Under the pieces are notes generated by a model. It searched no databases. It was given only the letters and a program-made list of their open reading frames with translations, and was not told the origin of the DNA. Of a stretch of DNA of 64,000 nt, positions 9,822 to 49,017 are shown piece by piece (the stretch's first letter is position 1; each line of letters opens with the position of its first letter). The stretch spans positions 96,001-160,000 of the forward strand of contig CAVWHO010000020.1 in NCBI GenBank assembly GCA_963754875.1, given 5' to 3'. Origin of the DNA: Nitrospirota bacterium (lineage in GTDB: Bacteria > Nitrospirota > UBA9217). Position numbers and translations under genes: made by a program.

Positions 9822-9847
9822 ATTGGCGGGAGAGCATGAGAATCGAA
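9822..9847. repeat. att site: duplicate of the tRNA-Sec 3' end (distal island boundary)
   Basis: ATTGGCGGGAGAGCATGAGAATCGAA, identical to 25414-25439. Confidence 0.93.
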
Positions 9848-10427
9848 ATTATGCCTGTGCCTAATTTATCAATGAGTTAAAGACTTATACGGTATGTTCA
9901 CGGTATGAAATTCATTTCCAGATCCACTGACATCACTCCCGCGAAATCCATCCACCCGGTTACCTCAGTATCGTTGCTCTTGTTAGAACTGATAGCAAGA
10001 AAAGCCCCTAAATGTCTGTTCTCATAATATCATTCGGAGCAGTGACTTTTCTTACTTGCCACTTGTACTTATAACGGCAAAAAATCCAGATGCCCAAGCA
10101 TCGACAGTTACACCTGCTACACTCACAAACTCACTGCCTGTCTCCCCTGTAATATATGCCTCGTCGTTCTTTTGCATCTAGTAGAGTCGACCTGTTTATA
10201 CGGGTGGTAGTATGGATATTCCTTGTTCTCCCCATCCACTCTTGCCGCAACTCCGCATGAGGTATTTCCCTGCAATTTTCGCAGCACCATCCCGTGCTTG
10301 CACTCAGAGAGGAGGGGCTGTTCTCCGTGCGCAGTCAGTGTTCGTCCATTTTCCACGAACTTGAAACCCCACATCTTTTGTCTTATCGCGATCTTACCTT
10401 GTCGGTTAAGCGCCATCAGAAAAAACC

Positions 10428-10551
10428 TTTTCACAGTGGAAAACGAAATTGCTTCAATATTTCATTTTGAAAAGAAGGATGTTGCAGTTCCCTCTAGAAC
10501 CTTCAAGATATCAGTTAGTTGAGAATCGCCATGGTCGGGCACACCTATTGC
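10428..10551 (+). promoter_or_regulatory. Sigma-54 promoter with putative enhancer palindromes and IHF site
   Basis: GG(10538-39)-N10-GC(10550-51) in CGGGCACACCTATTGCA; TATCAGTTAGTTG IHF-like; palindromes TTTTCACAGTGGAAAA and TTTCATTTTGAAA; all conserved in the inverted copy at 24.7-24.8 kb. Confidence 0.8.
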
Positions 10552-10629
10552 AATATTATGCAAACAGGAACGGCGCTTAACAGGTAGCTTCATCAATTTG
10601 GGTCCAAAAAAAAGGACAAGGAGGTTAAG

Positions 10630-12167
10630 ATGAAAGTAACAAGACGCAATTTATTTAAGCTTGGTATTGCAAGCGCAGTAGCCGGGGTGGTAGCGAAAGT
10701 AGGTTCTCTAAAAGTGGGCCTGTCCTCCAACACAGCTGAGGCCGGCATATTCGGGGACCCTACGTTCCAGGATGTCTACAACCAGATCGGAAAATACATT
10801 CATCTGGTCCCGGGCAAGTTCGCCGGCGGCGTCTCCGCCCATGATATGTCGACCGGTCAATGTCTTGCCTCGATGAATATGAGCATATGGGCCGGGAATA
10901 AAACACCAATCGTTCACCATCTCGCCGCATTCGCTTCTCCAGACCCCTACAAGGAATTCGAGTGGATCGTCGATTCTCAAGGGGGGAAAAACCTGTATAT
11001 CTACGGTGTGACCACACCCGTGAAGGACCCCGCAGAAGGGTTCAATATCTGGAGATGCAATTACGATGGCACCAAGATGAACGTCCTGGAAGACGTTGCG
11101 GAAACTACGGGCATCGGCCTTGGTGTGCACGTCACTGTGGCGCCTGATAACAAACGGTTCTCCGTGTGTGACGGCCAGAAGGACATCATGGCGGTATTCA
11201 AGAAGGGCGAAGGCACGGGTAATTCTACCGTGGAGGCCGCAGTCCTCTTTGACTGGGAGTATAACAATTCGGAACTTTCGCGGGTTTGGTTGGACGGGGG
11301 AACGCTCACTATCAGAAAGCTTCATGCCCCCTACGACCTGAAAGGGACCAAGGGATGCAAGACTGACTGGGAGCTTGTTCCTGGCGGTGAACTTTTCGCT
11401 GAGCAGGGGAAAGTTCCCGGCCCCCGGCTGAAGAACCTCGTCGCTCTCGACTCACTTTGCTGGGATCCGAACCACAAGAACTATGCTATTGCAGCCCTTC
11501 GCCTCCCCGGATGCGGCGTCGTTTTCGATACGACAACGTGGGAACCGAAAGCTATCTGCGTCGGGTCCGATAAGCATGCCAAGCAGGGCTTCCAGGTACC
11601 GGTACAGAAGGTAGGCAACGGGGAATGGAAGGCTGTCTTTAAGAATGTTCCCACGCCGGCACATCAGGCGGGCTTCAGTCCCGACGGAGACCGTTTTATC
11701 CTCATGAACAACAGCCGGGAGAACATTATGGCGGTCTTCGATTCGAGCAATCAGTCAGATCCTACAAGTTGGAGAAGAATTGCAGGAGTCGGCGATCCCA
11801 GCTGGCGCGGCGCCTATCCGAATCCGTTCCATATGGCCTTTACGCCTGACGGCCGAAGATGTACGTGACGCTGTGGTGGCCGTCCCCGAGCACGAACGGC
11901 ATTGCCGCTGTCGACACAAAGACCTGGAAAATTATCAAGACCATAGATATAGGACCGGACACGCACACTATCGCGGTCACCGATGACGGGAAATGGCTGT
12001 TCGGCGTGTTCAGTGGTTATCAGAAGACCAAGACCGGGACCTACGTGGTCCGTGTCAAGGATGACAAATTTTATGGTTATCTGCCGAGCCCTTACGGCAG
12101 CCACGATTCCGTCATCGTACCAAAATCGGTTGCCGGTCTAGCGTTTTCAAGGTGCCCTACCACTTAG
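10630..12167 (+). CDS. Thiocyanate dehydrogenase (TcDH)-like Tat-exported copper beta-propeller enzyme; one frameshift near 11855
   Basis: TRRNLFK Tat signal; PGKF, IVHHLAAFASPDPYKEFE, QGGKN, GLGVHVT, DWELVPGGE, HQAGFSPDG, WRGAYPNPFHM, YVTLWWPSP, GPDTHT, GSHD match Thioalkalivibrio TcDH as recalled from memory; split over ORFs 10630-11868 and 11859-12167. Confidence 0.88.
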
Positions 12168-12203
12168 CAAACTGTTCGCGGGCGATCCGCGCGGAATGTC
12201 GAA

Positions 12204-12243
12204 AAACCCCTTGATGGAAGACTAGCTCTCCATCAAGGGGTTT
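12204..12243 (+). terminator. Strong hairpin after the TcDH gene
   Basis: AAACCCCTTGATGGA...TCCATCAAGGGGTTT, 15-bp stem. Confidence 0.7.
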
Positions 12244-12297
12244 AAGGCCCGATGCACAAGGGCGCGGCCATATACCCGCGACCATGGGAGATTAAAC

Positions 12298-13512
12298 ATG
12301 ATCAGGTCCCTCTTTGGACTTGCTTATCAGAATCTACAGGTGAAACATCTGCGTTTCTACATCATTCTGGTCAGCGTTAGCATAGTCATCGGGGCGTTCT
12401 TTGCAAGTTCTATCCTCATTATGGGGATCAACCACACTCTTAACCAGGGCCTCTCGAAACTCGGGGCCGACCTACTCGTAATTCCCAAGGAATCCCTGGT
12501 AAATCTCAAGTCGGCGCTCCTGACGGGAGAGCCTTCCGCCTTTTATATGGACAGTGCAGTGCTCGACAAGATACGGGTGCTGAAGGGCGTTAAGAAGGTA
12601 TCGGGACAGATTTTTCTGACCAGCGCAACGGGAGATTGCTGCGTCATGGGAAATTCATTTCTCATTGGTTTCAATCCCAAAGATGATTTCACCGTGATGC
12701 CGTGGGTGGACAAGAGCGTAAAGGAACCGTTCCCGCCCGATGGAGCGATTGTCGGCGCAATGACGCCCTGGAATCTGGAGGACGGTCTTAAATTCTACGG
12801 TGTTCGTTTGAAAGTATGGGCCAAGCTCGAACGGACCGGGATCGGATTGTACGATAACGCAGTTTTTTTCAATATCGACCGGGCCTATGAAATGTCCGAG
12901 AAGTCGCAGCGCGATTCATTGGTGAAGCCTCTTGCGCCGCTGAGAAACAGAATATCCGGCGGATTGGTCCAGCTCGACGTAGGGGCAAAAATCCCGTTCA
13001 TCACATTTTCGATCCTGAAGGATAATCCCAGTCTGAAGGTGGTGACCACGGGAAATATCGCGACCTCGGCTCGGCAGACGACGGTAGCCGTATTTTTTGG
13101 CATCGTCGTGCTCATCGTTGTCCTCATTCTGTCCAATGTCCTTATGATTAATGCCATATTCTCCGCTGTTGTGAATGAACGCAAAAGAGAAATCGGCATT
13201 ATCAGGGCTATCGGGGCTACAAAAGCCAATATATTCATGCTCATCCTTTATGAATCGACCCTGATCAGCGTCATCAGCGGCTTTATGGGCATGGTCATCG
13301 GGGGAGTTCTCCTGAAACTGTTCCAACGGTCGATTATCTTTTACCTGAAAATGCTCAACATACCGTTTATGCTGCCGCCCTTCGAAATGATCGCATCAAT
13401 GATGGTGGGAGCGATTGGGGTGGCTCTTATCATGGGGGTAAGCGGGTCGATGTATCCGGCCATCCTCGCTGTGAGGATAGATCCTCACGAAACTATGAAG
13501 CAGGGGTTATGA
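12298..13512 (+). CDS. ABC transporter permease (MacB/FtsX type)
   Basis: ERKREIGIIRAIGA; 1+3 TM layout; GDCC in the periplasmic part. Confidence 0.9.
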   Translation: MIRSLFGLAYQNLQVKHLRFYIILVSVSIVIGAFFASSILIMGINHTLNQGLSKLGADLLVIPKESLVNLKSALLTGEPSAFYMDSAVLDKIRVLKGVKKVSGQIFLTSATGDCCVMGNSFLIGFNPKDDFTVMPWVDKSVKEPFPPDGAIVGAMTPWNLEDGLKFYGVRLKVWAKLERTGIGLYDNAVFFNIDRAYEMSEKSQRDSLVKPLAPLRNRISGGLVQLDVGAKIPFITFSILKDNPSLKVVTTGNIATSARQTTVAVFFGIVVLIVVLILSNVLMINAIFSAVVNERKREIGIIRAIGATKANIFMLILYESTLISVISGFMGMVIGGVLLKLFQRSIIFYLKMLNIPFMLPPFEMIASMMVGAIGVALIMGVSGSMYPAILAVRIDPHETMKQGL

Positions 13513-13513
13513 C

Positions 13514-14245
13514 ATGGCAGACTTCATTCGGACTCGTGCACTAAAGAAGATCTATTATCTGGGTGATCAGCGAGTTGAGGCCCTGAAGGGCGTCGATCTC
13601 GACATTCCCTCGTCTGATTTCGTGGTCTTTATGGGCCATTCGGGATCAGGTAAGACCACGCTCATCAGCACCATCGGCGGGCTTACGAAACCAACCGAGG
13701 GGACAGTATCAATCGATGGCGTTGACATCTGGAAACTGAACGACCGGGAACTTTCCATCCTGAGGAACCGCAAGATCGGTTTCGTCTTCCAGTCCTTCAG
13801 TCTGCTGTCGACGCTGAACGTCCTCAACAATGTCGTTATGCCTGTGATATTCAACAAGAACGGGGACCGCGATGCGGATGTCGTCCGAGATCGTGCGATA
13901 TCCATCCTCGAGGGTCTCAACATGAAGAAAAAGATCGAGTCATATCCTTCGGAACTGTCGGGGGGGGAACAGCGGCGGGTGGCCATTGCACGTGCGCTCA
14001 TAAACGACCCCGACATTATCCTTGCCGACGAGCCGACCGGCGAGCTCGATATCAGAACGGAGCAGGAGGTCATTGACATCTTCCGGATGATCAACACGCA
14101 ATACAAAAAAACCATAATCGTTGTGAGCCACAGCCTCACCTGGCTCGAATCTGCTAAGACGGTTGTCGTCATGAAGGACGGGTTTTTGTACCGGGATGTG
14201 GCAGATCCCGTTGAGGCCTTGATGGGAAAGATTTGCAAGCCATGA
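13514..14245 (+). CDS. ABC transporter ATP-binding protein (LolD/MacB type)
   Basis: GHSGSGKT, LSGGEQRR, ILADEPTG. Confidence 0.95.
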   Translation: MADFIRTRALKKIYYLGDQRVEALKGVDLDIPSSDFVVFMGHSGSGKTTLISTIGGLTKPTEGTVSIDGVDIWKLNDRELSILRNRKIGFVFQSFSLLSTLNVLNNVVMPVIFNKNGDRDADVVRDRAISILEGLNMKKKIESYPSELSGGEQRRVAIARALINDPDIILADEPTGELDIRTEQEVIDIFRMINTQYKKTIIVVSHSLTWLESAKTVVVMKDGFLYRDVADPVEALMGKICKP

Positions 14246-15690
14246 CCATCCTGAAATTCGCGCTACTTGACCTGATGCGCAGGCCGAAAAAGAGCGGGTT
14301 GATCGTTTTTGCGATCGTCATATCCGTTGCGCTCCTGTCTTCGCTTTCGATCGTAAGCACTTCGGCGACGTCAAACATACTGGAAGTGATCTCAAAGACA
14401 GGTCATACGCTGACCGTTCGTCCCGTCATAACCGCCGCTATCGACGAGGCGGACAAGAGTGCACTGCAGAACCTCACCATTTCGGAGGTGGTCTTCGGCA
14501 AATATATACCCGAGTCGGCGGTGCAGGAGATTTCAAGGACATATGACAAGGCAATTCGGGAGGGATGGGAACGGAAAGGCGGGCTGGTCAGCAACCCGGG
14601 AATCCCGGACACGAGCATCGTACCGCCGACCTGGGCGCCCCGGCTCTACGTGAAGGCGGTGGTGGACGGTCATGAGGCTATCGTTACGGGAATCGATATC
14701 ACCAAGGAATATTTCGTCCGTTTCTGGTGGACCTTGTCCAGCGGCGAGTGGCCGAAAAATGTGGATGTCAAGAATGTCGATACGAAGATCGATGCCATGT
14801 ATGTCATGGGGCGCGACGGACAGGTAACCGTGAAGAAGCCGAAATACCGGCTCGATGAACAGGGGAAGACAATATACGATGACAGTCATCATGACAACGC
14901 TACCGGGTCATCAGACGATAAGCTGCGCCATTTTGCCTATGGGCATGGAGCCGCCGATGAGATCAGAAACGATGCCTATCTCGGGGGGGGGTATGCCGCC
15001 GCCAGGAGACTGAAAGTCGGAGATACCATGACGGTTGCATCGCGACAATTCAAGGTCATGGGCGTCCTGGAGGAAACGAACTCCGCCGATGATTATATGG
15101 TCTTTATTCCGTTGTTGACGGCCCAGAAAATGTTTCACAAGGAAGGATATATATCGCTGCTGAGCGTCAGGGCCATGTGCCCTAACTGCCCCGTTGGAGA
15201 CGCCATGGTGGAGTTGAACAAGAACATCACGGGCATTACCGCGGTCTCCCAGCTCGACGTCGCGGGTTTGCAGTTCGACTTTTTTAATATGCTGTATCGC
15301 TTCCTCTTGGCAGTGGTGGTTGCCACCATTGCCGTGGGTATCTTTTCGATCTTCAACATTGTCGCCGGCTCTCTGTACGCGCGGGCGCGGGAGGTCGGCC
15401 TGCTCAAGGCGGTCGGCGCATCGCGTTTTCAGCTTGTCAGGATATTTCTGTACGAACACCTTATAATCGGGATCATTGCGGGGCTCGGCGGATTTGCGGC
15501 GGGTGTCGGCATGGCGCATATCATGAATACGTTCCTCGGTATTGGAGCGGTCGTCCGGGTCGAGGTTGGGGTGCTATGGCACGCACTGGCTCTCGGCATA
15601 ATTTGCAGCCTCCTCGCCATTTATTACCCGGCATATAAACTGTCGGGTATAAAGATCACGGAGACGTTTCGAACCCAGTGGGAGGTTTAG
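14242..15690 (+). CDS. ABC transporter permease (MacB/FtsX type) with His-containing insert and CPNC motif
   Basis: REVGLLKAVGA; RAMCPNCP; start overlaps upstream stop (ATGA). Confidence 0.88.
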   Translation: MTILKFALLDLMRRPKKSGLIVFAIVISVALLSSLSIVSTSATSNILEVISKTGHTLTVRPVITAAIDEADKSALQNLTISEVVFGKYIPESAVQEISRTYDKAIREGWERKGGLVSNPGIPDTSIVPPTWAPRLYVKAVVDGHEAIVTGIDITKEYFVRFWWTLSSGEWPKNVDVKNVDTKIDAMYVMGRDGQVTVKKPKYRLDEQGKTIYDDSHHDNATGSSDDKLRHFAYGHGAADEIRNDAYLGGGYAAARRLKVGDTMTVASRQFKVMGVLEETNSADDYMVFIPLLTAQKMFHKEGYISLLSVRAMCPNCPVGDAMVELNKNITGITAVSQLDVAGLQFDFFNMLYRFLLAVVVATIAVGIFSIFNIVAGSLYARAREVGLLKAVGASRFQLVRIFLYEHLIIGIIAGLGGFAAGVGMAHIMNTFLGIGAVVRVEVGVLWHALALGIICSLLAIYYPAYKLSGIKITETFRTQWEV

Positions 15691-15691
15691 G

Positions 15692-16882
15692 TTGAACTTA
15701 TTGTCGCTCGTGACTAAGGACATCATGCGGAGAAAGGGGAAAAGCGTTTATCTGCTGACCGCCATGCTTATTCCTGTTGTTATTCTCAGTACGATCCTGC
15801 TGACGGTCGACAACGCGGACAGGTCCCTCGCGACCCTCGCCTCGAAATTCGGCTTTACCATGACTGTGCAGCCGAAGAACATCAAGGTCGAGCGGATCGA
15901 TCAGATCGGTGTGGTGATTAATGAGTTCCTGCCGGAGACCGTCATGAAATCAATTGACGAGATTGTCAGGAAAAGGACAGGGAACAAGCAAGAAGCGATT
16001 ATCATCGCGCCGCGGATATACCAGCGGACGGATACCGTGATCCGGAAGTCTTCCGTCAGTACGGTCGTCGCCGGTATCGATTTTCAATCCGAACGAGCGG
16101 CCAAACCGTCCTGGAGTCTGGCGAGCGGGCAATGGCCGACGGGAGAAGGGGAGGCTGTGATAGGCGGGACTTTTGCCCGCGCGAACAATCTCTCGGAGAA
16201 TGCGGTAATCTCGGTGGACGGCAGGGCCTTTACGGTTGCGGGTATCCTTAAAAATTATAACGTCTCCGACGATTATATGGTTTTTGTCCCCTTCAGTGTT
16301 CTCCAGGCCCTTTCCGATAAAAAAGGTTTCTTATCGCTCGTAAATGTGCAGAATGTTTCCCTTGACCGGGATCGGAACCTCCTGCGCGATGTTGTCACTG
16401 AATTGAACAGCACCATTCCCGACGTCAAGACCCTCGTACCTCAGCAGTTTAGCACGATGAAATATGTCTTTCTCAAGAAAACCTTCAAATTTCTCCTTTC
16501 CATCGTTGCGTCAACGGTGTTCATCAGCATATTCGCGATCTTCAATATCGTTACGAGTGTACTCTATTCCCGCATCAGGGAGATTGGCCTGCTGAAGACC
16601 GTGGGTGCCTCGCGGTCGCAGCTGCTTCTCGTTTTTCTCGGCGAGTACTCAGCCATGGGCCTCGCGGCCGGTATCGCGGGTTATCCGATCGGCATGGTGA
16701 TGACCTACGTCCTCGATTCCTTTGTTCTGAACCTTGGCGCAGGCGTCCATTTTAGCCTCTCAGTGTTTCTTGCTGCGATCGCTTCCGGTATTCTCTGCAG
16801 CCTGGTGGCTGGCTTTTACCCAACCTACAAGCTGTCGGGGATAAAAATATCGGACAGCTTCAGATCCCAGTGGGAGGTGTGA
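15692..16882 (+). CDS. ABC transporter permease (MacB/FtsX type)
   Basis: REIGLLKTVGA; C-terminus FRSQWEV resembles the preceding permease (FRTQWEV). Confidence 0.88.
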   Translation: MNLLSLVTKDIMRRKGKSVYLLTAMLIPVVILSTILLTVDNADRSLATLASKFGFTMTVQPKNIKVERIDQIGVVINEFLPETVMKSIDEIVRKRTGNKQEAIIIAPRIYQRTDTVIRKSSVSTVVAGIDFQSERAAKPSWSLASGQWPTGEGEAVIGGTFARANNLSENAVISVDGRAFTVAGILKNYNVSDDYMVFVPFSVLQALSDKKGFLSLVNVQNVSLDRDRNLLRDVVTELNSTIPDVKTLVPQQFSTMKYVFLKKTFKFLLSIVASTVFISIFAIFNIVTSVLYSRIREIGLLKTVGASRSQLLLVFLGEYSAMGLAAGIAGYPIGMVMTYVLDSFVLNLGAGVHFSLSVFLAAIASGILCSLVAGFYPTYKLSGIKISDSFRSQWEV

Positions 16883-17607
16883 TTTTGGACAACAACGAAG
16901 GGGAAACATTCCTGGAACTTCGGGATGTCAGCAAGGCATTCAGACTGGCGTCGGGGGAGGTAAAGGCACTCGACGGCGTTTCTCTCAGCATCGGAAGGGG
17001 CACACTGGTCGCACTTGTGGGACCGAGCGGGTCTGGCAAGACCACCCTTCTCAATATCATCGGTGCTCTTGATAAACCGTCCCAGGGGGAGGTGCTGCTG
17101 GAGGGGATCAGGATCGACAGTTTGTCGGAAGAGAAACTGGTCCAGTTCCGCAGAGAGAAGTTCAGCTTTATATTCCAGGACGCAAAACCACTGCGTATGC
17201 TGAACGTGCTCGAAAACACACTGCTCCCTTTCAGCTTTTTCAAACCGAAGCACAGCAGCGGGAGCATAAAGGACACCGGAATAGAGATAATCAAATCCCT
17301 GGGGCTAGGGCATCGGCTTTACCATATGCCGAGCCAGCTAAGCGGCGGAGAGATCCAGCGTGTGGCCATTGCCCGTGCGCTGATAACCCGTCCGGCAGTC
17401 ATCCTTGCCGACGAACCGACTGCCAATCTCGACCGGGATAACCGGCTGTTCGTTATGGAGACCTTTAAACTACTTTCCCGCGAGCGGGGGATAACCATAG
17501 TATTTTCCACCCATGACCTTGAGATAGCTAATAGCTCCGACCGTATCATCCAGATGAAGGACGGCGTGCTGTTAAAGGATGAGTCTCCCTTGTGCCCGGT
17601 CTGTTAG
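16879..17607 (+). CDS. ABC transporter ATP-binding protein
   Basis: GPSGSGKT, LSGGEIQR, ILADEPT; ends CPVC; start approximate. Confidence 0.93.
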   Translation: MILDNNEGETFLELRDVSKAFRLASGEVKALDGVSLSIGRGTLVALVGPSGSGKTTLLNIIGALDKPSQGEVLLEGIRIDSLSEEKLVQFRREKFSFIFQDAKPLRMLNVLENTLLPFSFFKPKHSSGSIKDTGIEIIKSLGLGHRLYHMPSQLSGGEIQRVAIARALITRPAVILADEPTANLDRDNRLFVMETFKLLSRERGITIVFSTHDLEIANSSDRIIQMKDGVLLKDESPLCPVC

Positions 17608-17643
17608 ATATAAGGGCGTGGCGCCAAAAGAAAGGGTGCAGGC

Positions 17644-18318
17644 ATGAAAAGCAAAACTGATATACTTGCTGCCCTGAAAAGCAGGAAAATGGCTGTTGCG
17701 TTCGTGACGGCAATCGTTGTCCTTCTGCTGGCGGACATCGTTGTCGGACGCTGGCAGGAAAGTATTATCAGGGGAAAAGAGGCAGCGATTAAACGCCTCC
17801 AGGCGCAGGCGTCTCGCATGCTTTCCGTCGATGTTCGCGATATCACCGAAACGGCCGGCATCACTCACACGGGACGTTATGAAGTGCTCATACGGATAGA
17901 CAACGTCGGTGAAGAGCCGGCCTACTTGACGCACCCATCAGTGAAGGCCTACATTCAGACCGGAACCATCTCGTGGACAGAAGTGCCCGTAGCGGAAAAG
18001 GCCGGTGAGAAACAGGAACAGGTATACAAGATCGCAGAAGGTCACCTGCTTTTCAGAAAAATACTTACGGTCTCCCAGCGTTTACCCTACAACAAATACC
18101 TGATCCCGAAGTACATGCATGTGCGGTTCTATATAACCATGGATGTCCTTCCGGAAAGCGGTTTTAAGGAGGGAGAAGTCGTTGAAAGGAAGAGCGATAT
18201 CTACATTTATCTTAAACCCTACTGGATCAGCCGAAGGGAAATCGCTAAGGCGATAGATTTCGGTGACACGAAGATCCCGGTTTATATGCCTATATCGTCG
18301 TTCAGGAACTGGAACTAG
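17644..18318 (+). CDS. Membrane-anchored hypothetical protein (paralogue A)
   Basis: Single N-terminal TM; clearly similar to 18369-18995. Confidence 0.8.
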   Translation: MKSKTDILAALKSRKMAVAFVTAIVVLLLADIVVGRWQESIIRGKEAAIKRLQAQASRMLSVDVRDITETAGITHTGRYEVLIRIDNVGEEPAYLTHPSVKAYIQTGTISWTEVPVAEKAGEKQEQVYKIAEGHLLFRKILTVSQRLPYNKYLIPKYMHVRFYITMDVLPESGFKEGEVVERKSDIYIYLKPYWISRREIAKAIDFGDTKIPVYMPISSFRNWN

Positions 18319-18368
18319 TTGACGTCCCGGCGCGCTCGTTCGGAGTCTGTCGACGGGGGGATTACGAA

Positions 18369-18995
18369 ATGCTCAGAAAAAAGAAACTGATCGCCTCGCT
18401 TATCGGGGTTGTCCTCCTCTTCGTTGTCGCTGATTACCTGGTCGGGCTGAAAGAGACCGCCATCATCAGGGAAAAGGAGGCAAAAAAGGAGCGGCTGGAA
18501 AAAAGGGCCTTCTATCAGATCATGCCCGACGTCGAGGACGCACGGATCATCAAGGGAAAGCCGGGGCAATACGAGATTGTTATCAAGATAGAAAACCTTG
18601 CAGATGAGCCCGTGTATATATCCTATCCGCAAGCGGTTGCGTACGTTCAGACCGGTATGTCCTGGACGGAAGTCCCTGTACGCGAGGGCGAACGAAAAGC
18701 GGAGGAGCAGGTCATCCGTATTGAACCGGGAGTCCATCGTTACCGGAAGATTATCACGATCAGCCGCTCTATAAAATACAGCTATTATCAGATGTTTGGT
18801 TACATGCACGTCCGTGTCCGTCTTTCCCTGTTCGTGCTGCCGGAAAGCGCCTTCAAGGAAGAAGAGGTCGTTGACCGATATTCGGATGCTTATATGTATT
18901 TGAAGCCCTATTACATCACTGACCGGGAGATCGCCCGGCAGGTGAAATTTCCAGACAACAAGATACCCGTTATGATACCGATGCCGCCCCATTAA
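18369..18995 (+). CDS. Membrane-anchored hypothetical protein (paralogue B)
   Basis: Shares QTG..SWTEVPV, YMHVR, VLPES, YLKPY, KIPV with paralogue A. Confidence 0.8.
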   Translation: MLRKKKLIASLIGVVLLFVVADYLVGLKETAIIREKEAKKERLEKRAFYQIMPDVEDARIIKGKPGQYEIVIKIENLADEPVYISYPQAVAYVQTGMSWTEVPVREGERKAEEQVIRIEPGVHRYRKIITISRSIKYSYYQMFGYMHVRVRLSLFVLPESAFKEEEVVDRYSDAYMYLKPYYITDREIARQVKFPDNKIPVMIPMPPH

Positions 18996-19015
18996 GAAAA
19001 AGGAGGGAAAAAACA

Positions 19016-19429
19016 ATGCGTACGGATACGATGTTAAGGTGGACAGGGGTTTTCTCCATCTTGGCAATAAGCGTTTTCCTGATGGCCTTCGAGCAGAAAG
19101 GAATCAATAGCGAACAGGGATTCTACTCGATCGATGTGCAGTGCGCTGCAAATCCGGTGACGGTTGGCAAAAACAACATGACTGTCACGATAAACGATGC
19201 GAAATCCCTGAAGCCCTTCGAAAAAAAGCTGACTGTTGAAGTGATTCCCTGGATGCCAACCCATGAGCACGGCTCGAGTGATATTGCGTCGGTGACATAT
19301 CTCGGGAAGGGACTGTATCGTGTTGAAGGAATTAACTTCACTATGCCGGGGGAGTGGGATGTATACTTCAAGATACGAGACGGAAGCAAAGAAGATTCTG
19401 CGGTTTTCAACGTTAACATTACCCCATGA
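19016..19429 (+). CDS. Exported YtkA/FixH-like protein
   Basis: Signal peptide; PWMPTHEHGS and FTMPGEW motifs; AGGAGG RBS. Confidence 0.75.
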   Translation: MRTDTMLRWTGVFSILAISVFLMAFEQKGINSEQGFYSIDVQCAANPVTVGKNNMTVTINDAKSLKPFEKKLTVEVIPWMPTHEHGSSDIASVTYLGKGLYRVEGINFTMPGEWDVYFKIRDGSKEDSAVFNVNITP

Positions 19430-19555
19430 TCGTCGTTCAATGATCTTTCTTCGGCGGCAGGGCGCTATAAAAAAGCGGCATCAGGAACTGGTATTTCATC
19501 ATTCACCGTCCTGCTATATAAAAAAACATTTCTGAAGATAGAGTTCAAAGACGTT

Positions 19556-20077
19556 ATGCCGAACGCCTGTCTGAAAAAAGCAGTACCTATCTGCATGTTT
19601 GTCGCCCTGTGCGCGTATGCTGGAGCCGGATTTGCAGGGAGGATGACCCCGGACCACTTCGCCGCGGAAGTGTCGAACATTACTTATCAGAACAACGACG
19701 AGTACCTTGTGGAAATTACCATAACAAACAGTTCTAATGAAACAGTGGTTCTGGAAGGATATGAGGCGAGTTTTTCCGTACAGAGCGAAATCCTTGGCCA
19801 GTGGATTGAACTTAGCCATCGCGCGGTCGGCGTTCCGGGGCACCCTGCCGGGCTCGCTGCTCTCAGCGGAAAAAAATGGAAGACCACGGAGACCGTAATT
19901 ATACCGTTCGCTGGTCCTCACCTGTTCAGAAACCATGAGGGTGATATGAATTTGCTGTTCCGATATAAGCTCAAATTAACTGGTACCTCATCTTCCCGAG
20001 AAGGTGAAGACGGTGGAGAAAGTGCTTATTGGGTGACGCCGCAAACAGACCGGTGGGTGCTCAGGGAGGGGATGTAG
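19556..20077 (+). CDS. Secreted hypothetical protein (distant paralogue of A/B)
   Basis: Signal peptide; YLVEITITN...VQ...WIEL...GDMN pattern. Confidence 0.65.
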   Translation: MPNACLKKAVPICMFVALCAYAGAGFAGRMTPDHFAAEVSNITYQNNDEYLVEITITNSSNETVVLEGYEASFSVQSEILGQWIELSHRAVGVPGHPAGLAALSGKKWKTTETVIIPFAGPHLFRNHEGDMNLLFRYKLKLTGTSSSREGEDGGESAYWVTPQTDRWVLREGM

Positions 20078-20307
20078 AGGCGACATTCACCATGCCGTTA
20101 GATCTCGTGGTACGAGTGGTGAGTTTGCAGATCAGCGAGCTGGTTTCCCGGACTAAGATCCGGCATATGGCATAATGTGATGATAACTTATCTGGTTTTT
20201 TCAGGGTGCCGTTGTGATATAATATAACGTCAACGAAAGATTAGGAGCGGTTTGCGGTTATGAACGGCAGAAGGGGCGTCAAGAAGGGTCTTCCGAAGGA
20301 AAGGAAA

Positions 20308-20604
20308 ATGAGGCTAAACTGCTGGGAAGTCATGAAGTGCGGAAGGGAACCCGGAGGGAGCAACGTAGCGGCACACGGGATATGCCCTGCCGTGACCTGC
20401 GCAAAGCTTGACAGCGCTCACGGAGGGAAAAATGCGGGCCGTGTGTGCTGGATCGTTGCCGGCACGATGTGTGGTGGAGAGATTCAGGGGAGTTTCGCTC
20501 GAAAATACTCCGACTGCCGGAAATGCAGGTTCTACCAGATGGTAATGGAAGAAGAAGGGCCGAACTTTCATTTAACAATAGACCTTGTAGAGTGGCTCAA
20601 ATAG
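20308..20604 (+). CDS. Two-CW domain Cys-rich small protein
   Basis: NCWEVMKCGREPGG...CPA...CWIVAGTMC...CRKCRFY. Confidence 0.75.
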   Translation: MRLNCWEVMKCGREPGGSNVAAHGICPAVTCAKLDSAHGGKNAGRVCWIVAGTMCGGEIQGSFARKYSDCRKCRFYQMVMEEEGPNFHLTIDLVEWLK

Positions 20605-20606
20605 GC

Positions 20607-21950
20607 TCATCTAATACCGTATCTATTCATCTTACGCCAGAGCGTCGTTCTGTTGGTTCCCAGTTCTCTGCATACTTTGCCCAGATTGTGGTCGTTCCTT
20701 TCGATGCTTTTCACGATGACATCTTTTTCCCATTCTTCCAGGGTGCCGGGATTTTCCTCTTTGCTCGCGCCGATAGACATGTCAAACAGTTGGTTTGTAA
20801 ACCCGAGCGACAGATCGGGTACTGTTATCACCAGCCCCGTTGCGATTGCTGCAGCACTGGTTATGATGTTCTGCAGTTCACGCACATTCCCGGGGAAGTC
20901 ATATCGGTAAAGAAATTCCAGGGCTTCCGGCGACAGGTCAATATCAGGTTTGCTGTGCGCGACCCTGACGTTTTTCAAAAAATTTTGAGCCAGGACGGGA
21001 ACATCCTCCGGTCGCTCCCTGAGCGGCGGGATGTGGACTTGGGTGACCTTGATTCGGTAATAGAGGTCTTCCCGGAATGTGCCGTTCTCAACGGCCTGTT
21101 CAAGATTCCGGTTCGTGGCGGCGATTATCCTGACATCCACACCCCTGTGTTGGTTCTCACCCACCCGTCGGATAGTTCGGTCCTGCAGAACGTCAAGTAA
21201 CTTTGCCTGCATGGTATACGGCATAGCACAGATCTCATCGAGGAACAGGGTCCCGCCGTTCGCTTCTTCAAATAAACCTTTTCTGTCAAGAATCGCTCCG
21301 GTAAACGCTCCCTTCACATGACCGAACAGCTCGCTTTCCAGCAGGTGTTCTGGGACGGCGGAACAGTTTATGGCCACATACGATTTCCTGCTTCTGCAAC
21401 TGAGGCTGTGCACCGTTTTGGCGACGAGGTTCTTTCCGGTGCCTGTCTCTCCGGATATAAGGACCGTCAGATCCACTTGAGCAATCTTGCGTATCTTGGC
21501 AATCAGCGCTTTTGTTGCATCACTGTATCCAAGGATGGGAATCTCGCTGTCATTTGTCTCATGCAGGGACGTTATCTCGCGTTCCGTCTCTATATGGGTC
21601 AGGGACTTTCTTACCCGGTGAAGTATCTCTTCGTTCTTAAAAGGCTTTACGATATAATCGAAAGCCCCGAGTTTCATGGCCAGGACGGCGGAATCGACCG
21701 TACCGTACCCCGTCATGATGATCACGTCAGCCTGGTGATGTCTTTCGAGGACATAATACAGAACGTCGAGTCCGGTGCCCGGCGACATTTTCAAGTCCGT
21801 AATAACTAGATCAAATTGACCTGAGGCGAGGTGTTCGGCGGCGCGCTTTCCGTTTTTCGCCTCTTCCACCGAATAACCTTCTTTCCGCAAGAGAATCACG
21901 AGGCTCCGTCTCATGCCGTCCTGATCGTCTATTACTAGTATCTTGGCCAT
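20607..21950 (-). CDS. Sigma-54-dependent response regulator (NtrC family)
   Basis: Receiver domain, GETGTGK, ESELFGH, GAFTGA, C-terminal Fis-type HTH. Confidence 0.95.
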   Translation of the reverse strand: MAKILVIDDQDGMRRSLVILLRKEGYSVEEAKNGKRAAEHLASGQFDLVITDLKMSPGTGLDVLYYVLERHHQADVIIMTGYGTVDSAVLAMKLGAFDYIVKPFKNEEILHRVRKSLTHIETEREITSLHETNDSEIPILGYSDATKALIAKIRKIAQVDLTVLISGETGTGKNLVAKTVHSLSCRSRKSYVAINCSAVPEHLLESELFGHVKGAFTGAILDRKGLFEEANGGTLFLDEICAMPYTMQAKLLDVLQDRTIRRVGENQHRGVDVRIIAATNRNLEQAVENGTFREDLYYRIKVTQVHIPPLRERPEDVPVLAQNFLKNVRVAHSKPDIDLSPEALEFLYRYDFPGNVRELQNIITSAAAIATGLVITVPDLSLGFTNQLFDMSIGASKEENPGTLEEWEKDVIVKSIERNDHNLGKVCRELGTNRTTLWRKMNRYGIR

Positions 21951-21988
21951 TTACTCTCCACTTCTGTCCGGCCGCCCACCATTCGCTC

Positions 21989-23646
21989 TCACGCTCGGTC
22001 GCCCTCACATGCGGCCTCAACCGTCTCGGGGGCGGGGAAATTAAGCTGAACATGGGTTCCCTTCCCCGGGGTGCTGGAAAGAAGAACGTACCCGTTGTGT
22101 TCCTTCACGATTTTGTGCACGATATTGAGCCCCAGGCCCAGTCCCGAGTCTTTTGTCGTGAAAAAAGGTTGAAAGGCCTGCGACACGACTTCCGGAGACA
22201 TACCGGCACCGGTATCGGCTATTGAGATCTCCACTTCGTTCTCGGACCGCTTGAACCGTGTTGAAATGGATACTTCTCCTCCTGCCGAAATAGCCTGCCG
22301 GGCGTTGATCAGCAGGTTGAGCAGGATCTGTCTGAATCGGTTCTCTGTCGAGCATCAGCCGGGGCACATCCGGCGCGAAGGAGTGCTCGATCCGGACCTT
22401 CGTCCAGCCTAACTTGTCGCTCCGGAGCAGCGAGATCGTTTCCTGGATGAGCGGGTGGACATCGGTCGCCTCCATCTTCAAGAGCGACGGGCGGGCGAAG
22501 CTTAAGAAATCCTCGGTCATATTGTTGAGCCGGTCCATTTCTTTTTCGACGATCCCGATCAATTCGAGATCGTCGCGGCCTAACGAGCTGTACCGTTTGA
22601 GCGCACCAAGAGAATTGGAGATGGCGCCGAGAGGGTTCCTGATTTCATGTGCCACCATGGCGGCCATTTTGCCCAACGAAGCAAGCTTTTCCGATTCCTT
22701 TAGGTATTTTTGCGTCGTTTTCAGTCGGTCATAAGCATCGCGGATCTCGAAGTTTTTCTGCTCGATCTCCCGGAGGAAGTTAGCCAGCTTAATCTTTGAT
22801 TCATGAAGGCGGTACACGGTGTGGGTGAATCCGTAAACAAGGCCGATGAGTAGACCTGAAGATATCATTACCTTGATGATATGCCAGTACCACCAGAGGG
22901 GATCCCAGAGTTTTGAAAAGGAGAACAACAGCTCACTTTCAAAGAAAAGGAGAGCTGCCGTCCCGAAGATCAGGTAAATGACGTCATTTGTTTTCAAAAA
23001 ACCTTTTACGAAAACGAAGCCTACAAGGAGATACAACATGCCTGCAATGAAATTGACAGCGTAAATCAAATTGCTAAATTGTCCTCGTACCTGGATCGCA
23101 CTCGCACTGTGCGGAGGCCTTATTGACAAGACGTTGGGAATGATCTCGACCATTCTCGTAGCCAGCAGGGCGAGTAGGATGATCAGGACGATCCCCGAGG
23201 CAACGAGACCGCTTCTGGTCCATGATGATTTTGCAGGTTCGCCCATCTTTTTGTTCAGAAAGGTGGAACCCGCGAGGAATACGAGACCCGAAAAAAGCGC
23301 TGCAGGAATGGAACCAGACAAAAGTGTTGTAATCATAATCGGAAAAAGCGTGAAAGATGTCGAGGATGCCGATCGAAAAGAATGCAAAGACTAGCCAGAG
23401 GATGTTTTTCTTCCCCGAAAGCTGGTATTCCCAGGCCAGGATGAATGCTATGATGCCGGAGATGAGTCCGCAGAATAGTTCAAGTGTCGCATGTTTTGAA
23501 GCATCTACAAAGAACAGATTGTTTGCCGCTGGTATGACGAATGGCTCGACGATAGACAAGGAGGCAACAGTAGCCAAGGTGAAAAAAGTGAGGAAAAGAA
23601 GCTTGTTTCGGTTGATCGGGGAGTGACCGCTTTCTACATCATCCAA
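21989..23646 (-). CDS. Membrane sensor histidine kinase (MASE3-like N-terminus); two frameshifts (~23270, ~22335)
   Basis: Multi-TM N-terminus (HATLELFCG, LDIFHA), HEIRNPL H-box, DTGAGM / PFFTTK / GLGLGL in the final fragment; start uncertain. Confidence 0.85.
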
Positions 23647-24015
23647 GCGAAATACCACATACCTGAGCAATGGCTCCTCGTAATTCACGGAGAGCAATTT
23701 CCTCAAATGACTGATTACGCGGTGTATTATCATTCCGAAGGTCCTGAAGAGGAATTTGCAAGGATTGCAACCAGAAAAAGTAAACTGCCATCAAACCGGT
23801 ATGACATGGGCGGGCTGCTCTCAAAAGACAGAGCTGTTCTCGGCAACACTGCTTAACTCTGTCCCCATATGTTTAATGTTACACCATATTGCAAAAAAAT
23901 ACTACTGCTGCGGACATATGAAAGAGACGTACTTGAGACTGGACTGAGGTGCGAGGAGGGAAATAACGGTTTGCATTGAAAACTTGTCTTTTATTTTTTC
24001 TCGTTTTTTTGTTTT

Positions 24016-24186
24016 TCAGACTGGCTTGTTTTTGGATTCATCTTCTCCTGAAATGGCTTTCTTAAATGATTTTATACTTTTCCCTAGACCTTCTCCAATT
24101 TCCGGTAGCTTTCCAGGGCCAAAAATTATTAACACGATAAAGAGAATTACGAGCAAATGCATTGGCCGAAAAAGTCCTTCAAACAT
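24016..24186 (-). CDS. tatA: Twin-arginine translocase subunit TatA
   Basis: 56 aa, [32 protein letters not shown]. Confidence 0.92.
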
Positions 24187-24483
24187 AATTAATTTCTCCT
24201 TTGACATACTACTATTTTTTGACGTTAGAAATACCAATTTGTATATTTGTAAAATATTTGCATAGAAGAACGGTTTCAATTATTAAATGGGTGATATAGG
24301 TAGGCAAGCATAGATTTAGGTCCAGATCTTGCTCGCATGACTGCCGCATAACTTTTATCCTATATCTGAGTTGCCGAGTGCGCGACATCTCCTAGACTGG
24401 CTGCGCAGTTTCTCTAATAAAAATGCGTTATTCATGGCCAATTGATTTCCGAATATTATGAGCAAAAAAAGGCGCAATACTAA

Positions 24484-24618
24484 TGTAGGATCGCCGAATA
24501 TGGTGGTTCCGCGGTTTCGGGTGGCACTCCCACTTTTATAGAACCCGCTTTAGATACCACCCCGGCTACCGTACTAGCAAATGCCAAGTTTGAACAAACT
24601 ACGACTTGTTAAATTCAT
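24484..24618 (-). pseudogene. Decayed copy of the TcDH 5' end (Tat signal region)
   Basis: Minus strand reads MNLTSRSLFKLGI/ASTVAGVVSKAGSIKVG...IFGDPT versus MKVTRRNLFKLGIASAVAGVVAKVGSLKVG...IFGDPT; indels, RR lost. Confidence 0.85.
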
Positions 24619-24703
24619 TTTAACATCTTTTGTCATTTGTTTGGGGTCACATCCCGATGAAGTTAAATATTAAGCACCTCTTTTCACCTCTTATCAGTTA
24701 CAC

Positions 24704-24828
24704 TGCAAAACGTATGCCCGACCATGCCTGTTTTCAACTAACTGATTCCTTGGAGGTTCTAGATGGAACCGCACAGTCCATCTTTCCAAATTGAAACATT
24801 CAAAGAACGGGGTTTTCCATTGTGAAAA
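24704..24828 (-). promoter_or_regulatory. Second (inverted) sigma-54 promoter and enhancer, homologous to 10428-10551
   Basis: Minus strand CGGGCATACGTTTTGCA, ATCAGTTAGTTG, TTTTCACAATGGAAAA. Confidence 0.78.
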
Positions 24829-25415
24829 GAGTTTTTTCTTGCACAGACCATCAGTCTAATCCTCGCTACTGCCTACTCATTTACTTTCTGGCTTCTTCTA
24901 AATAATTGGTATTCTTTGATTTAGCTTGCTTTGAGGCACTTCGGTGGATCTTGGAGACGAGTTTCAGTATATGTTCCATGATCTACTAATTTTGCCTGGC
25001 AGGTTTGCTCGCTTCTTATGGTGTTGCTTGCGCAATCATTTATCTCTAAAAAAAATATAGCGCATTGCGTAATGTCCGCCAGTAACATGTGGATATCTGC
25101 CTTGGGGCGGAAACGTGATGACTTTATAGTTAATATAAATTGATATTTATTCCGTCGGAGCAGGCGGCTGCAGAAGGATAGCGATTTACTATGGGACGAG
25201 CGTAAACAATATCATGGCAGCGATGGAATAAACGGCATAGCGGAATGATTTCAGGAAACGGAAACTCGGGCACGGTTTATTATCAAGGGCAATAATCAAT
25301 ATTGGGCTGTCGCTGCGGATATGTAAGTGGACTAGACGGACTGGGAGGAACAAAATAAAGTAGATGCCACGGTATGAGGTTTTAAAACGTATCTATTTGA
25401 AATTAAATGGAAAAT

Positions 25416-25514
25416 TGGCGGGAGAGCATGAGAATCGAACTCACCTCACCGTACTCACGCACGGTGACAGCGGATTTGAAGTCCGGGACGGGCACCAGCT
25501 CCGTAACCTCTCCC
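25416..25514 (-). tRNA. selC: tRNA-Sec (UCA)
   Basis: GGGAGAGG...GGACTTCAAATCC...long variable arm...GTTCGATTC...CTCTCCCGCCA, 99 nt; selA and selB nearby. Confidence 0.95.
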
Positions 25515-47974: not shown

Positions 47975-48051
47975 AGCATCTGCCACAGAAGGGATCGTTA
48001 ACACCGAAAAGTCAGAAAGCAGGGGCCGGGGTCAAGGGGCAAGTTTAACAG

Positions 48052-48969
48052 ATGGCGCATTTTCAATTTATCATCATCATTCTGTTCTCTCCGTTGGTGA
48101 ACGGAGTGATCAAAAAACTCAAGGCGAACATGCAGGGCCGAGTTGGTCCGGGTGTGTTGCAGCCGTATTACGATCTCCTGCGCCTTTTTAAAAAAGACAT
48201 GGTCGTTTCCACGGTAACGTCCTGGATCTTCAAGGCGACCCCGTATATCGTTTTCACGGCAACCATCGCTACGGCCATGATCGTGCCTATAGTGTCTACG
48301 GCATCTTCCTATAGCATGATGGGAGATGTGATTGCGCTCATTTATCTCTTCGCTCTTGCGCGGTTTTTCATGGCCCTCGCCGGACTCGATGCAGGGACCG
48401 GCTTCGGCGGAGAGGGGAGCAGCCGCGAAATGACCGTCGCGATCCTGGTCGAACCCATGATGATGCTCGCGCTCTTCACTGCCGCCATCTCGGCAGGTTC
48501 GACGAACATCGCACGTATCGCCGCGACTTCGAGCGCCGTCTATTCGCCGTCCCACGTGCTTGCGCTGTCGGCGTTCATTGTTGCGATCATCGCCGAAACG
48601 GGCAGGGTGCCGGTCGACAACCCGGACACACATCTGGAGTTGACCATGATCCATGAAGGCATGATCCTGGAGTATTCAGGACGGTATCTTGCCCTCATGG
48701 AATGGGCGCACTATATAAAGCAGATGGTGCTGTTCACGCTTGCGGTGGATATCTTCTTCCCGGTAGGAATTATGCAGGCAGAGGGAACCTCAACAATCGT
48801 TGCGGCATCCGTGGCGTACGCGGGCAAGATGCTCGTCCTGGCGCTTCTGATGGCGCTTGTTGAGTCCACGCGGGCGAAAGTCCGGTTCTTTCGGCTCCCG
48901 TCGATCCTGGGCGGAGCCTTTGTCCTGGCGTTTTTGTCGCTGGTGACGCACATTATGCTGGGGAAGTAG
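48052..48969 (+). CDS. hyfC: HyfC/NuoH-like membrane subunit (Ehr 1)
   Basis: ETGRVPVDNPDTHLELTMIHE. Confidence 0.9.
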   Translation: MAHFQFIIIILFSPLVNGVIKKLKANMQGRVGPGVLQPYYDLLRLFKKDMVVSTVTSWIFKATPYIVFTATIATAMIVPIVSTASSYSMMGDVIALIYLFALARFFMALAGLDAGTGFGGEGSSREMTVAILVEPMMMLALFTAAISAGSTNIARIAATSSAVYSPSHVLALSAFIVAIIAETGRVPVDNPDTHLELTMIHEGMILEYSGRYLALMEWAHYIKQMVLFTLAVDIFFPVGIMQAEGTSTIVAASVAYAGKMLVLALLMALVESTRAKVRFFRLPSILGGAFVLAFLSLVTHIMLGK

Positions 48970-49017
48970 ACAACAGGGGGAGCGTTTGTTCTGGTACGTG
49001 GACGTGGGTGCGATGAT

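Follow-up and report, generated by a model that had tools for sequence, protein, structure and literature searches.

A predicted thiocyanate dehydrogenase operon on an att-bounded island at the tRNA-Sec gene of a Nitrospirota bacterium

Thiocyanate dehydrogenase (TcDH) chemistry has been described from sulfur oxidizers living in wastewater and in soda and salt lakes. A block of about 15.6 kb at the tRNA-Sec gene (selC) of a Nitrospirota bacterium, which a first-pass annotation read as a self-contained, horizontally acquired package for thiocyanate oxidation in an anaerobic host, raises the question whether such a system also exists outside these settings and what it would do there. Here, we analyze the block within a 64,000-nucleotide window (positions 96,001 to 160,000 of contig CAVWHO010000020.1, assembly GCA_963754875.1). 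We consider it fairly probable that it represents a TcDH operon between copies of the tRNA-Sec 3' end, predicted to convert periplasmic thiocyanate to cyanate and sulfur.

The block is an att-bounded island inserted at the tRNA-Sec gene, as first proposed: an exact 26-bp direct repeat (9822-9847 and 25414-25439), the second copy of which is the tRNA-Sec 3' end, delimits it together with matching arm-type repeats at both ends, an 8-mer class with a chance expectation of 0.012 per 110 bases. Every part listed by the first-pass annotation, i.e., the TcDH-like enzyme, a five-gene ABC module (three FtsX/MacB permeases and two ATPases), periplasmic accessory proteins (YtkA-like, two-CW and a membrane-anchored pair), a sigma-54 promoter with a sigma-54 two-component system, and a dedicated tatA, was recovered in place:

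9822..9847, minus strand: distal att, a 26-bp duplicate of the tRNA-Sec 3' end, where the next stacked segment also begins
9889..9907, minus strand: two arm-type repeats (8-mer) adjoining the distal att
10429..10552, plus strand: promoter 1, in which the palindrome TTTCA-N3-TGAAA occurs twice (10429-10441, 10460-10472), plus a sigma-54 -24/-12 site (10536-10552)
10630..12167, plus strand: predicted TcDH orthologue with putative twin-arginine signal, split into 412 and 102 aa (PDB matches, alignments)
12298..13512, plus strand: ABC permease 1, FtsX/MacB-type, four predicted TM helices
13514..14245, plus strand: ABC ATPase 1, LolD/MacB type
14242..15690, plus strand: ABC permease 2, with His-rich insertion and CPNC motif
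15692..16882, plus strand: ABC permease 3, paralogous to permease 2 and additional to the set of two-permease clusters
16870..17607, plus strand: ABC ATPase 2
17644..18318, plus strand: 224-aa membrane-anchored accessory protein, long helix plus Ig-like beta-sandwich (predicted model)
18369..18995, plus strand: 208-aa membrane-anchored accessory protein, paralogue of the 224-aa protein (44-47% identity)
19016..19429, plus strand: YtkA-like protein, conserved PWM-x2-HEH motif
19556..20077, plus strand: exported 173-aa protein
20260..20604, plus strand: two-CW domain protein (NF045718)
20607..21950, minus strand: sigma-54-dependent response regulator, GAFTGA motif
21989..23733, minus strand: MASE3-type sensor histidine kinase in three frames, shifted by a single base near 23283 and again near 22346
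24016..24186, minus strand: tatA, 56 aa from the likely start
24482..24836, minus strand: promoter 2, inverted palindrome pair plus sigma-54 site (24827-24704), then, from 24618, a degraded 5' remnant of tcdh
25369..25376, minus strand: arm-type repeat, 8-mer identical to the distal-end one, directly downstream of the tRNA
25416..25514, minus strand: tRNA-Sec (selC), whose last 26 bases at the 3' end form the proximal att

Three further copies of the 26-bp repeat lie beyond the island on the same contig, so that four att-bounded segments are stacked, the island being the first. The arrangement resembles cis-mobilizable elements (CIMEs) and their tandem accretion at tRNA genes, as described in PMC6323972, in having att sites at both ends, stacked segments and no detected integrase or transfer genes; it differs from those cases in that the sister elements here appear phage-like (segment 1 of genome G012) rather than ICEs, the cargo is a metabolic operon, and mobilization is only putative. 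None of 14 PF00589 matches falls within the segment array (C20:56422-121514), the integrases of sister segments match nothing there, no island ORF scored as a serine recombinase with general domain profiles, and no transfer genes were found in the island. Since sister segments in G012 and G006 carry an integrase at their distal end, loss of the integrase is a simpler account than an integron-like new cassette system, which we ruled out. The island likely entered as one unit via a site-specific element whose integrase has since been lost. An end near-identical to its distal arm region borders unrelated cargo at selC of G001, and the G+C content differs mildly (island 50.2%, genome 53.2%, selA/selB side 56.4%). 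Seven same-genus selC regions, covering 7 to 72 kb downstream, all lack the tcdh cluster, which bears out the expectation of relatives without it; none presented a clean empty-site junction. Because selC is a general insertion hotspot of the genus, with cargo unrelated among genomes, and other tcdh carriers hold their clusters elsewhere, the location is uninformative about selenium, and a selenium link drawn from it was rejected.

The two pieces of the island enzyme match solved TcDHs along their full length. The first (10630-11868) aligns with PDB 8q9x (E 1.8e-131) and with 5f75 of Thioalkalivibrio paradoxus (1.5e-116), and the second (11859-12167) resumes the match to 8q9x at the next residue (E 1.8e-38; 8q9x 27-387, then 388-489). 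We take the 8q9x/8yu5 family, entered under the name 'twin-arginine translocation signal domain-containing protein', to be the TcDH of Pelomicrobium methylotrophicum. No Pfam or NCBIfam family matched the window's TcDH; an RR-x-x-FK leader is visible and kept in relatives, and the Pfam TAT_signal model gave no score. Placed by motif, all 13 active-site residues given in the Fig. 4 legend of PMC6504805 are present (K103, H135, H136, Q156, H206, E288, D314, H381, H437, H482, H528, D529 and R544). The 16 positions checked in total, which include non-ligand cavity residues, are unchanged in 14 other full-length Nitrospirota copies. Y164, P291 and F436 also occur in the window's TcDH, the latter two being presumably TcDH site positions. 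With homology running end to end, from the putative twin-arginine leader through shared active-site residues to the C-terminal end, the alignments identify the island enzyme as a true TcDH orthologue, in agreement with its first assignment. It departs from the solved enzymes in falling into a distinct and well-supported subgroup, the placed members of which belong to Nitrospirota, about 55% identical to characterized enzymes on a branch of 0.48 changes per site, and in being frameshifted in this assembly.

The operon layout is likewise of a known type. According to the available portions of PMC5328954 and PMC5744179, Thioalkalivibrio tcdh clusters comprise thiocyanate-induced genes, with ABC permease/ATPase genes, two membrane-anchored hypotheticals, a kinase, a sigma-54 regulator and tatA near tcdh. 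The island shares the order tcdh, ABC genes, two membrane-anchored proteins, kinase with sigma-54 regulator, and tatA, so that the suggested synteny comparison confirmed a Thioalkalivibrio-type layout. Orthology was assessed with metagenome loci that carry a TcDH from another subgroup (L118, L125); orthologues of permease, ATPase, accessory, kinase and regulator genes adjoin TcDH there, and permease 1 shares 43-47% identity with the permease that follows TcDH in such loci. Unlike the Thioalkalivibrio cluster, the island has three permeases instead of two and additional YtkA-like, 173-aa and two-CW genes, lacks copCD, fccAB and a cytochrome c gene, carries its regulators convergently, and is att-bounded at selC in a host with dsrAB and acsB. 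With the Thiohalobacter and Guyparkeria loci, as far as excerpts of PMC6504805 describe them, it shares the active-site list and a sigma-54 activator and, in the case of Guyparkeria, a short repeated piece of tcdh close to the gene itself; its ABC-type layout contrasts with their Cus-like genes and thioredoxin-like protein. Judged by these comparisons, this is a known TcDH system in a new host group. A literature search covering main articles, as distinct from supplements that may list Nitrospirota homologues, found no published report of a TcDH operon in Nitrospirota.

Among the accessory proteins, the YtkA-like protein is a candidate copper chaperone. The 224-aa protein matched no family and no PDB sequence, and its Atlas matches stayed below 0.9; its predicted structure has a generic Ig-like fold (best Z 8.1) with no specific fold match. 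The 173-aa protein is possibly a distant third paralogue of this Ig-fold pair, to which it aligns weakly (E 0.004, probability 8%), and the two-CW protein has about ten relatives elsewhere in the genome. Promoter 2 points into tatA and the kinase/regulator genes, and the palindrome pairs of both promoters are predicted activator sites. The combined palindrome/sigma-54 pattern, which was derived from these loci, occurs twice in the genome, both times in the island, and in none of three shuffles; a regulon member elsewhere serving as electron acceptor was thereby ruled out. A sigma-70 promoter and terminator scan gave no excess over shuffles.

Distribution and phylogeny bear on how the island was acquired. 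TcDH occurs in two of 15 genomes of the genus and five of 64 of the family, with clusters at differing genomic sites. The closest copy (95.5%) resides in another genus, the same-genus copy being 88.4% identical, and a tree joining the two same-genus copies was rejected (p-AU 8.5e-97). TcDH is 81% identical to that of G402, as against 66% for RpoB, which fails to resolve G012 against G214. A second AU test on seven non-family carriers was driven by G355, which has another TcDH subgroup, and is unused as transfer evidence; on plasmids, only two Methylocella records (45% identity) and none of the Nitrospirota subgroup were found. The TcDH phylogeny conflicts with host taxonomy. Horizontal acquisition at selC, as originally suggested, is thus upheld by the patchy distribution, the differing sites and this conflict; occupation of the same site in all relatives with vertical descent is not what the seven selC regions and the trees display.

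The anaerobic host backbone argued for initially did not hold up. CooS, one of its pillars, lies in the second, neighboring att-bounded segment. Oxygen-respiration genes are also present, for an A-type oxidase (C13:12298-13884 for subunit I, accompanied by a gene for subunit II) and for a cbb3 oxidase (ccoNOP at C10:247463-250237), both typed by sequence and gene context, and cNor and nar genes occur as well. Since A-type oxidase, cbb3 oxidase and cNor are encoded, the host is, by its predicted gene content, not a strict anaerobe; heme-copper oxidases of such kinds occur in every one of the genus's 15 genomes. Compared with classical aerobic sulfur oxidizers, the host still stands apart, though less sharply, because it carries dsrAB, aprA and acsB. 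Its dsrA scored above cut-off with 3mm5 as best PDB match; to our knowledge, Dsr structures in the PDB are of reductive types only. A small ORF 3' of dsrB was not recognized as DsrD in a search whose control was also silent, and PMC11033732 assigns the reductive Dsr type to these classes. The description as self-contained likewise needs qualification, because no CxxCH protein, electron-acceptor gene or integrase was found in the island and no cyanase or flavocytochrome c in the host genome. Flavocytochrome c (FCSD domain) was found in none of the five carrier genomes searched, where a positive control was detected. Cyanase was found in one of 16 carriers, the same-genus G012, about 1.1 kb upstream of tcdh. 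With narG in one of five carriers (there in three pieces) and napA above cut-off in four of 16, nitrate coupling is not general; nirK was found in none of five carriers searched, and the searches for nosZ and thiocyanate hydrolase, whose controls stayed silent, carry no weight. Next to the G214 cluster lie a pentaheme cytochrome and a rhodanese; they were dismissed as candidates, being not kept in the other loci compared and matched in this genome only at 24%.

In the proposed mechanism, the MASE3 kinase would sense substrate or product, and the sigma-54 regulator would bind the palindrome pairs and activate both promoters. Promoter 1 would drive tcdh and the genes up to the accessory ones, and promoter 2 tatA and perhaps also the kinase and regulator, which would give positive feedback. 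TcDH would be exported by Tat, while copper loading or enzyme maturation may be aided by the YtkA-like protein and by the MacB-type ABC module together with the Ig-fold proteins. Electrons would pass to a host periplasmic cytochrome and on to O2 via the cbb3 or A-type oxidase or, less surely, to NO or nitrate. Cyanate would be hydrolyzed without cyanase, and sulfur may enter the host Dsr system or be released.

Two alternatives concern the state and history of the locus. The operon could be dead in this strain, with the tcdh and kinase frameshifts being real: two of the island's 13 genes carry three frameshifts between them, a decayed remnant of tcdh is present, and the integrase was not found. 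Yet tcdh, which is split into two ORFs because one base is missing near 11855, keeps its frame in 11 full-length genome loci and in contigs of about 95-97% identity, i.e., relatives from other strains, from three studies (three of four sequencing runs, the fourth having no coverage there), and the kinase is intact in G012, G130, G214 and G311. Moreover, splits affect eight of 75 orthologue pairs beyond the island, or 11 of 78 when its own pairs are counted (with some redundancy among the queries), narG is likewise in three pieces in this assembly, in-frame stops are absent, and both promoters are intact. The frameshifts are probably sequence errors, and decay appears quite improbable. Very improbable is an ancestral operon, mostly lost in the family and merely relocated to selC within the lineage. 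The family's copies within the main Nitrospirota subgroup do form one supported clade that partly tracks host descent, and the G214 and G182 clusters share a relA-recJ-tatA-mobA locus; these two, however, hold different TcDH subgroups (95% and 57% identical to the window's), and the corresponding locus in the window's genome holds other genes. The low prevalence, the greater likeness of TcDH than RpoB across deep host splits, and mosaic identity to G214 (91-98% from tcdh to the 208-aa gene, 61-83% from ytkA to the kinase) also count against this reading.

Two others concern the purpose of the operon. A genuine TcDH serving detoxification or nitrogen/sulfur scavenging instead of energy conservation, which we regard as rather unlikely, would fit a patchy, mobile, non-core operon without detected dedicated acceptor genes, the cyanase adjoining tcdh in one carrier, and thiocyanate that is probably dilute in natural soils and wetlands. 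Against it, cyanase, wanted for nitrogen use, was not found in 15 of 16 carriers, and the periplasmic electrons would still need a respiratory chain. Available excerpts on Thioalkalivibrio growing on thiocyanate for energy likewise describe cyanase activity as missing or suppressed. That the Nitrospirota subgroup keeps the three-copper site for another substrate, for example selenocyanate, an organic thiocyanate or a different small sulfur compound, seems distinctly improbable. The long branch, an identity gap in the homologue list (69% to 57%) and the altered accessory set (third permease, YtkA, two-CW) speak for it, but the invariant checked positions extend to residues shaping the cavity, orthologous kinase and regulator are retained, and cyanase adjoins tcdh in G012; for a selenium substrate in particular, the hotspot character of selC and the placement of other carriers deprive the location of any weight.

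Returning to the predicted thiocyanate-oxidizing operon, a broader reading, which we put forward tentatively and with some doubt, is that Nitrospirota of soils, peat and wetlands, of the sulfate-reducer type and with the Wood-Ljungdahl pathway, exchange a mobile, self-regulating TcDH module and would thereby use thiocyanate as an electron source where oxic and anoxic zones meet, with O2 (via cbb3), NO or nitrate as acceptor and with sulfur passing to a reductive-type Dsr system. The mechanics of the island are ordinary. If this reading is true, the module would represent an unrecognized natural thiocyanate sink and lithotrophy outside the classical sulfur oxidizers. It also offers testable targets, namely a neutrophilic TcDH subgroup, a YtkA-type candidate copper chaperone replacing CopC or Sco, and the predicted activator sites. 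The occurrence of a conserved mobile TcDH in Nitrospirota that carry dsr and acsB suggests that thiocyanate, or a near relative, is of importance in common soils and wetlands with little oxygen, and that such bacteria switch to oxidative sulfur chemistry.

The first-pass annotation had proposed an att-bounded island of 15.6 kb at the tRNA-Sec gene, and its parts and positions were found as claimed: the 26 final bases of the gene recur exactly at 9822-9847. The features referred to below are as follows.

25416-25514, minus strand: tRNA-Sec gene (selC)
Contig C20 of the window's own genome (G000), 56422-121514: stack of att-bounded segments, whose right-hand part is window 1-25514
24827-24704, inverted: predicted second promoter copy, ahead of a decayed tcdh 5' stub

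Between the att copies lie tcdh, encoding a thiocyanate dehydrogenase (TcDH), genes for three FtsX/MacB permeases and two ATPases, and accessory genes (two paralogous membrane-anchored proteins, a YtkA-like protein, a 173-aa exported protein and a two-CW gene), with tatA, a MASE3 kinase and a sigma-54 regulator on the opposite strand. The island has a G+C content of 50.2% versus 53.2% for the genome, and no heme motif occurs in any of its proteins.

The assignment of the enzyme as TcDH-like held when its two pieces were compared with known structures. The 412-aa piece matches PDB 8q9x (E 1.8e-131) and the Thioalkalivibrio TcDH 5f75 (1.5e-116), and the 102-aa piece resumes on 8q9x at the residue directly after it. 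All 13 active-site residues listed in the available part of PMC6504805 are present, as is Y164 from the corresponding part of PMC9456337. Pfam and NCBIfam profiles did not recognise the protein. P291 and F436, which we take to be active-site positions, are also conserved, and the 16 residue letters are identical in 14 other full-length Nitrospirota copies; a fifteenth copy ends with its contig. In the assembly, tcdh lacks one base near 11855. Contigs from relatives of the window's strain, ca. 95-97% identical and originating from three studies (soil, wetland and peat according to their records), show an additional base at that position; four runs were compared, the fourth being without coverage at this site. 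The kinase gene contains two frameshifts, which lie outside the rows compared, and split orthologue pairs amount to 11 of 78 in the assembly overall and 8 of 75 outside the island. Given the intact relative contigs and the splits elsewhere, the tcdh frameshift is likely an assembly error.

A synteny comparison, as the annotation had proposed, identified the island as the known TcDH operon in modified form. In Thioalkalivibrio, according to the portions of PMC5328954 and PMC5744179 consulted, tcdh shares its cluster with a sigma-54 two-component system and with genes for two hypothetical proteins and four ABC subunits; copCD, tatA and fccAB lie close by, and the cluster is induced on thiocyanate. 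Metagenome loci with TcDH of another subgroup contain orthologues of the permeases, ATPases, accessory pair, kinase and regulator, and several have a Sco gene upstream. The main Nitrospirota subgroup, to which the window's copy belongs, differs from the known operon by an extra third permease, YtkA and the two-CW gene; ytkA occurs in 10 of 12 main-subgroup regions, the two lacking it being incomplete. The YtkA-like protein retains a PWM-x2-HEH motif, and Bacillus YtkA/CtaK aids CuA assembly (PMC13344008, in part); based on this motif and precedent, we infer that the island protein is a candidate copper chaperone. For the 224-aa membrane-anchored accessory protein, the predicted model (pLDDT 86) joins a long helix to an Ig-like sandwich, and fold comparison of this model returned no specific match.

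Several neighbourhoods were recorded alongside. Genes for CopC, CopD, NosL and a thioredoxin-like protein lie upstream of one TcDH cluster (L003:2218-9064), rhodanese and pentaheme cytochrome genes flank one side of a close cluster (L132:10668-12559), and a Cas9-like gene, cas1 and a CRISPR-like array, seen from translations only, lie immediately upstream of another TcDH operon (L007:498-5403). In two carriers of TcDH, the cluster includes a gene whose product fuses a NosL domain to a probable outer-membrane domain (L130:9133-10590, L009:15985-17439), possibly another copper-delivery part. The host genome has a second permease akin to island permease 1 (32%), with an ATPase, beside a heptaheme cytochrome gene (G000:C21:19906-22735).

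The att core occurs in five copies on contig C20, at 121414, 105822, 93569, 73093 and 56422, bounding four stacked segments of 15.6, 12.3, 20.5 and 16.7 kb. Segment 2 carries CooS and a PAS-LuxR gene, segment 3 narGHJI and an FtsH-like gene; segment 4 encodes a 2887-aa protein. Segments 1-3 each have one arm-type 8-mer on the tRNA-proximal side and two of the same type distally, and an arm past the last att may mark a further, older segment, which would be the fifth. A near-identical segment end (89% over 94 bases) encloses other cargo in the compared genome G001. None of the 14 tyrosine integrase matches in the genome falls within the C20 array, and the sister segments of G012, a same-genus TcDH carrier, and G006 have an integrase or its remnants at the distal end. 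The arrangement seen in the sequence fits the cis-mobilizable element as defined in the accessible text of PMC6323972, with which it shares the att-bounded, integrase-less state. Following the suggestion to inspect this site in relatives, we found the TcDH cluster in none of seven same-genus selC regions fetched, four of which contain further att copies; in G012, TcDH and selC lie on different contigs. Across the genus, selC serves as an integration hotspot, where the arm repeats are of three or more types (L097-L116: G001, G002, G006, G012). Segment 1 of G012 and G006 looks phage-like, with a probable cognate integrase at its distal end.

A pattern search of species genomes returned 12 loci, all Nitrospirota or its subgroups by record, with differing upstream neighbours. 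Among 401 genomes sampled from the phylum there were 19 matches (9 strong and 10 weak, partial propeller matches), and TcDH was found in 5 of 64 family and 2 of 15 genus genomes. The nearest TcDH (95.5%) belongs to another genus (G214), the RpoB identity of the same pair being lower (94.6%), whereas the same-genus copy is only 88.4% identical versus 96.4% for RpoB; for G402 the values are 81% and 66%. A tree uniting the two same-genus copies was rejected (p-AU 8.5e-97), the constraint having been set after the identities were known. Against pure transfer, however, the family's main-subgroup copies form a single clade, and RpoB does not resolve G012 from G214. Identity to G214 is 91-98% across the first seven proteins and 61-83% from ytkA onward; judged by this drop, the island is a mosaic. 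Nitrospirota also hold another TcDH subgroup, 57% identical (G182 and G355; L128, L129), which has regulators upstream and no evident twin-arginine motif in the leader; the tcdh of G182 follows a gene for a small diheme protein. The Methylocella tundrae plasmid records H1 and H2 show a TcDH homologue at 45% identity and 89% coverage; the plasmid measures 304 kb, and the gene is entered there as a hypothetical protein.

Upstream of tcdh, two TTTCA-N3-TGAAA palindromes, spaced 31-32 bases apart, accompany a predicted sigma-54 site; of 12 related loci, 7 show a palindrome pair with this spacing. A search of the 4.3-Mb genome for the full pattern gave two occurrences, against none in three shuffles, and as the pattern was derived from these very loci only the second genomic copy is informative. 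This copy, also seen in contigs of two runs, is directed into the tatA, kinase and regulator genes. Most likely, a substrate would trigger the sigma-54 regulator to activate both promoters, and TcDH would be exported and loaded with copper, and would oxidize SCN- with water to cyanate, S0 and two electrons. A hand estimate from formation energies puts E0' at roughly -0.17 V, at which O2, NO and nitrate would be ample acceptors, unlike sulfur reduction. The known TcDH acceptor is a c-type cytochrome, and Tv. thiocyanodenitrificans is known to grow anaerobically on thiocyanate when given nitrate, in an excerpt that does not show TcDH use.

The host genome encodes dsrAB, aprA and acsB as well as an A-type oxidase, cbb3 ccoNOP and cNor. 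In the RpoB tree, the host family is sister to a group with G402 and G405 (65-70% RpoB identity), which are linked to Thermodesulfovibrionales and Candidatus Sulfobium loci. These genes and this position fit class UBA9217 as described in the consulted part of PMC11033732. All 15 genomes of the genus give strong matches to the COX1 family, and 16 of 16 carriers have this family, which includes NorB. Matches to dsrA occur in 15 of 16 carriers (13 over the cut-off), napA exceeds the cut-off in four and cyanase occurs in one, adjoining tcdh; this sole cyanase lies directly upstream of tcdh (L044, G012:C2:237452-237655). The host has 41 ORFs with at least two heme motifs, none tied to the island. 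Assembly contamination is 4.5%. rpoB occurs twice (C12:10364-14266 and a fragmented copy at C11:102701-106605), as do tuf-like matches, possibly reflecting duplication or contamination. Within the window, 45983-61168 holds two tandem hydrogenase-4-like (hyf/Ehr) membrane gene sets, several genes of which are split by frameshifts.

Among the literature matches listed, largely main texts of open-access papers, none reports TcDH in Nitrospirota; one paper covers both topics, and in the part available its tcdh belongs to a Thiohalobacteraceae MAG. The window contributes the bounding of the island by att and arm repeats, the tandem array, the test for transfer and the second promoter. The island is a modified form of a known TcDH system in an unexpected host group.
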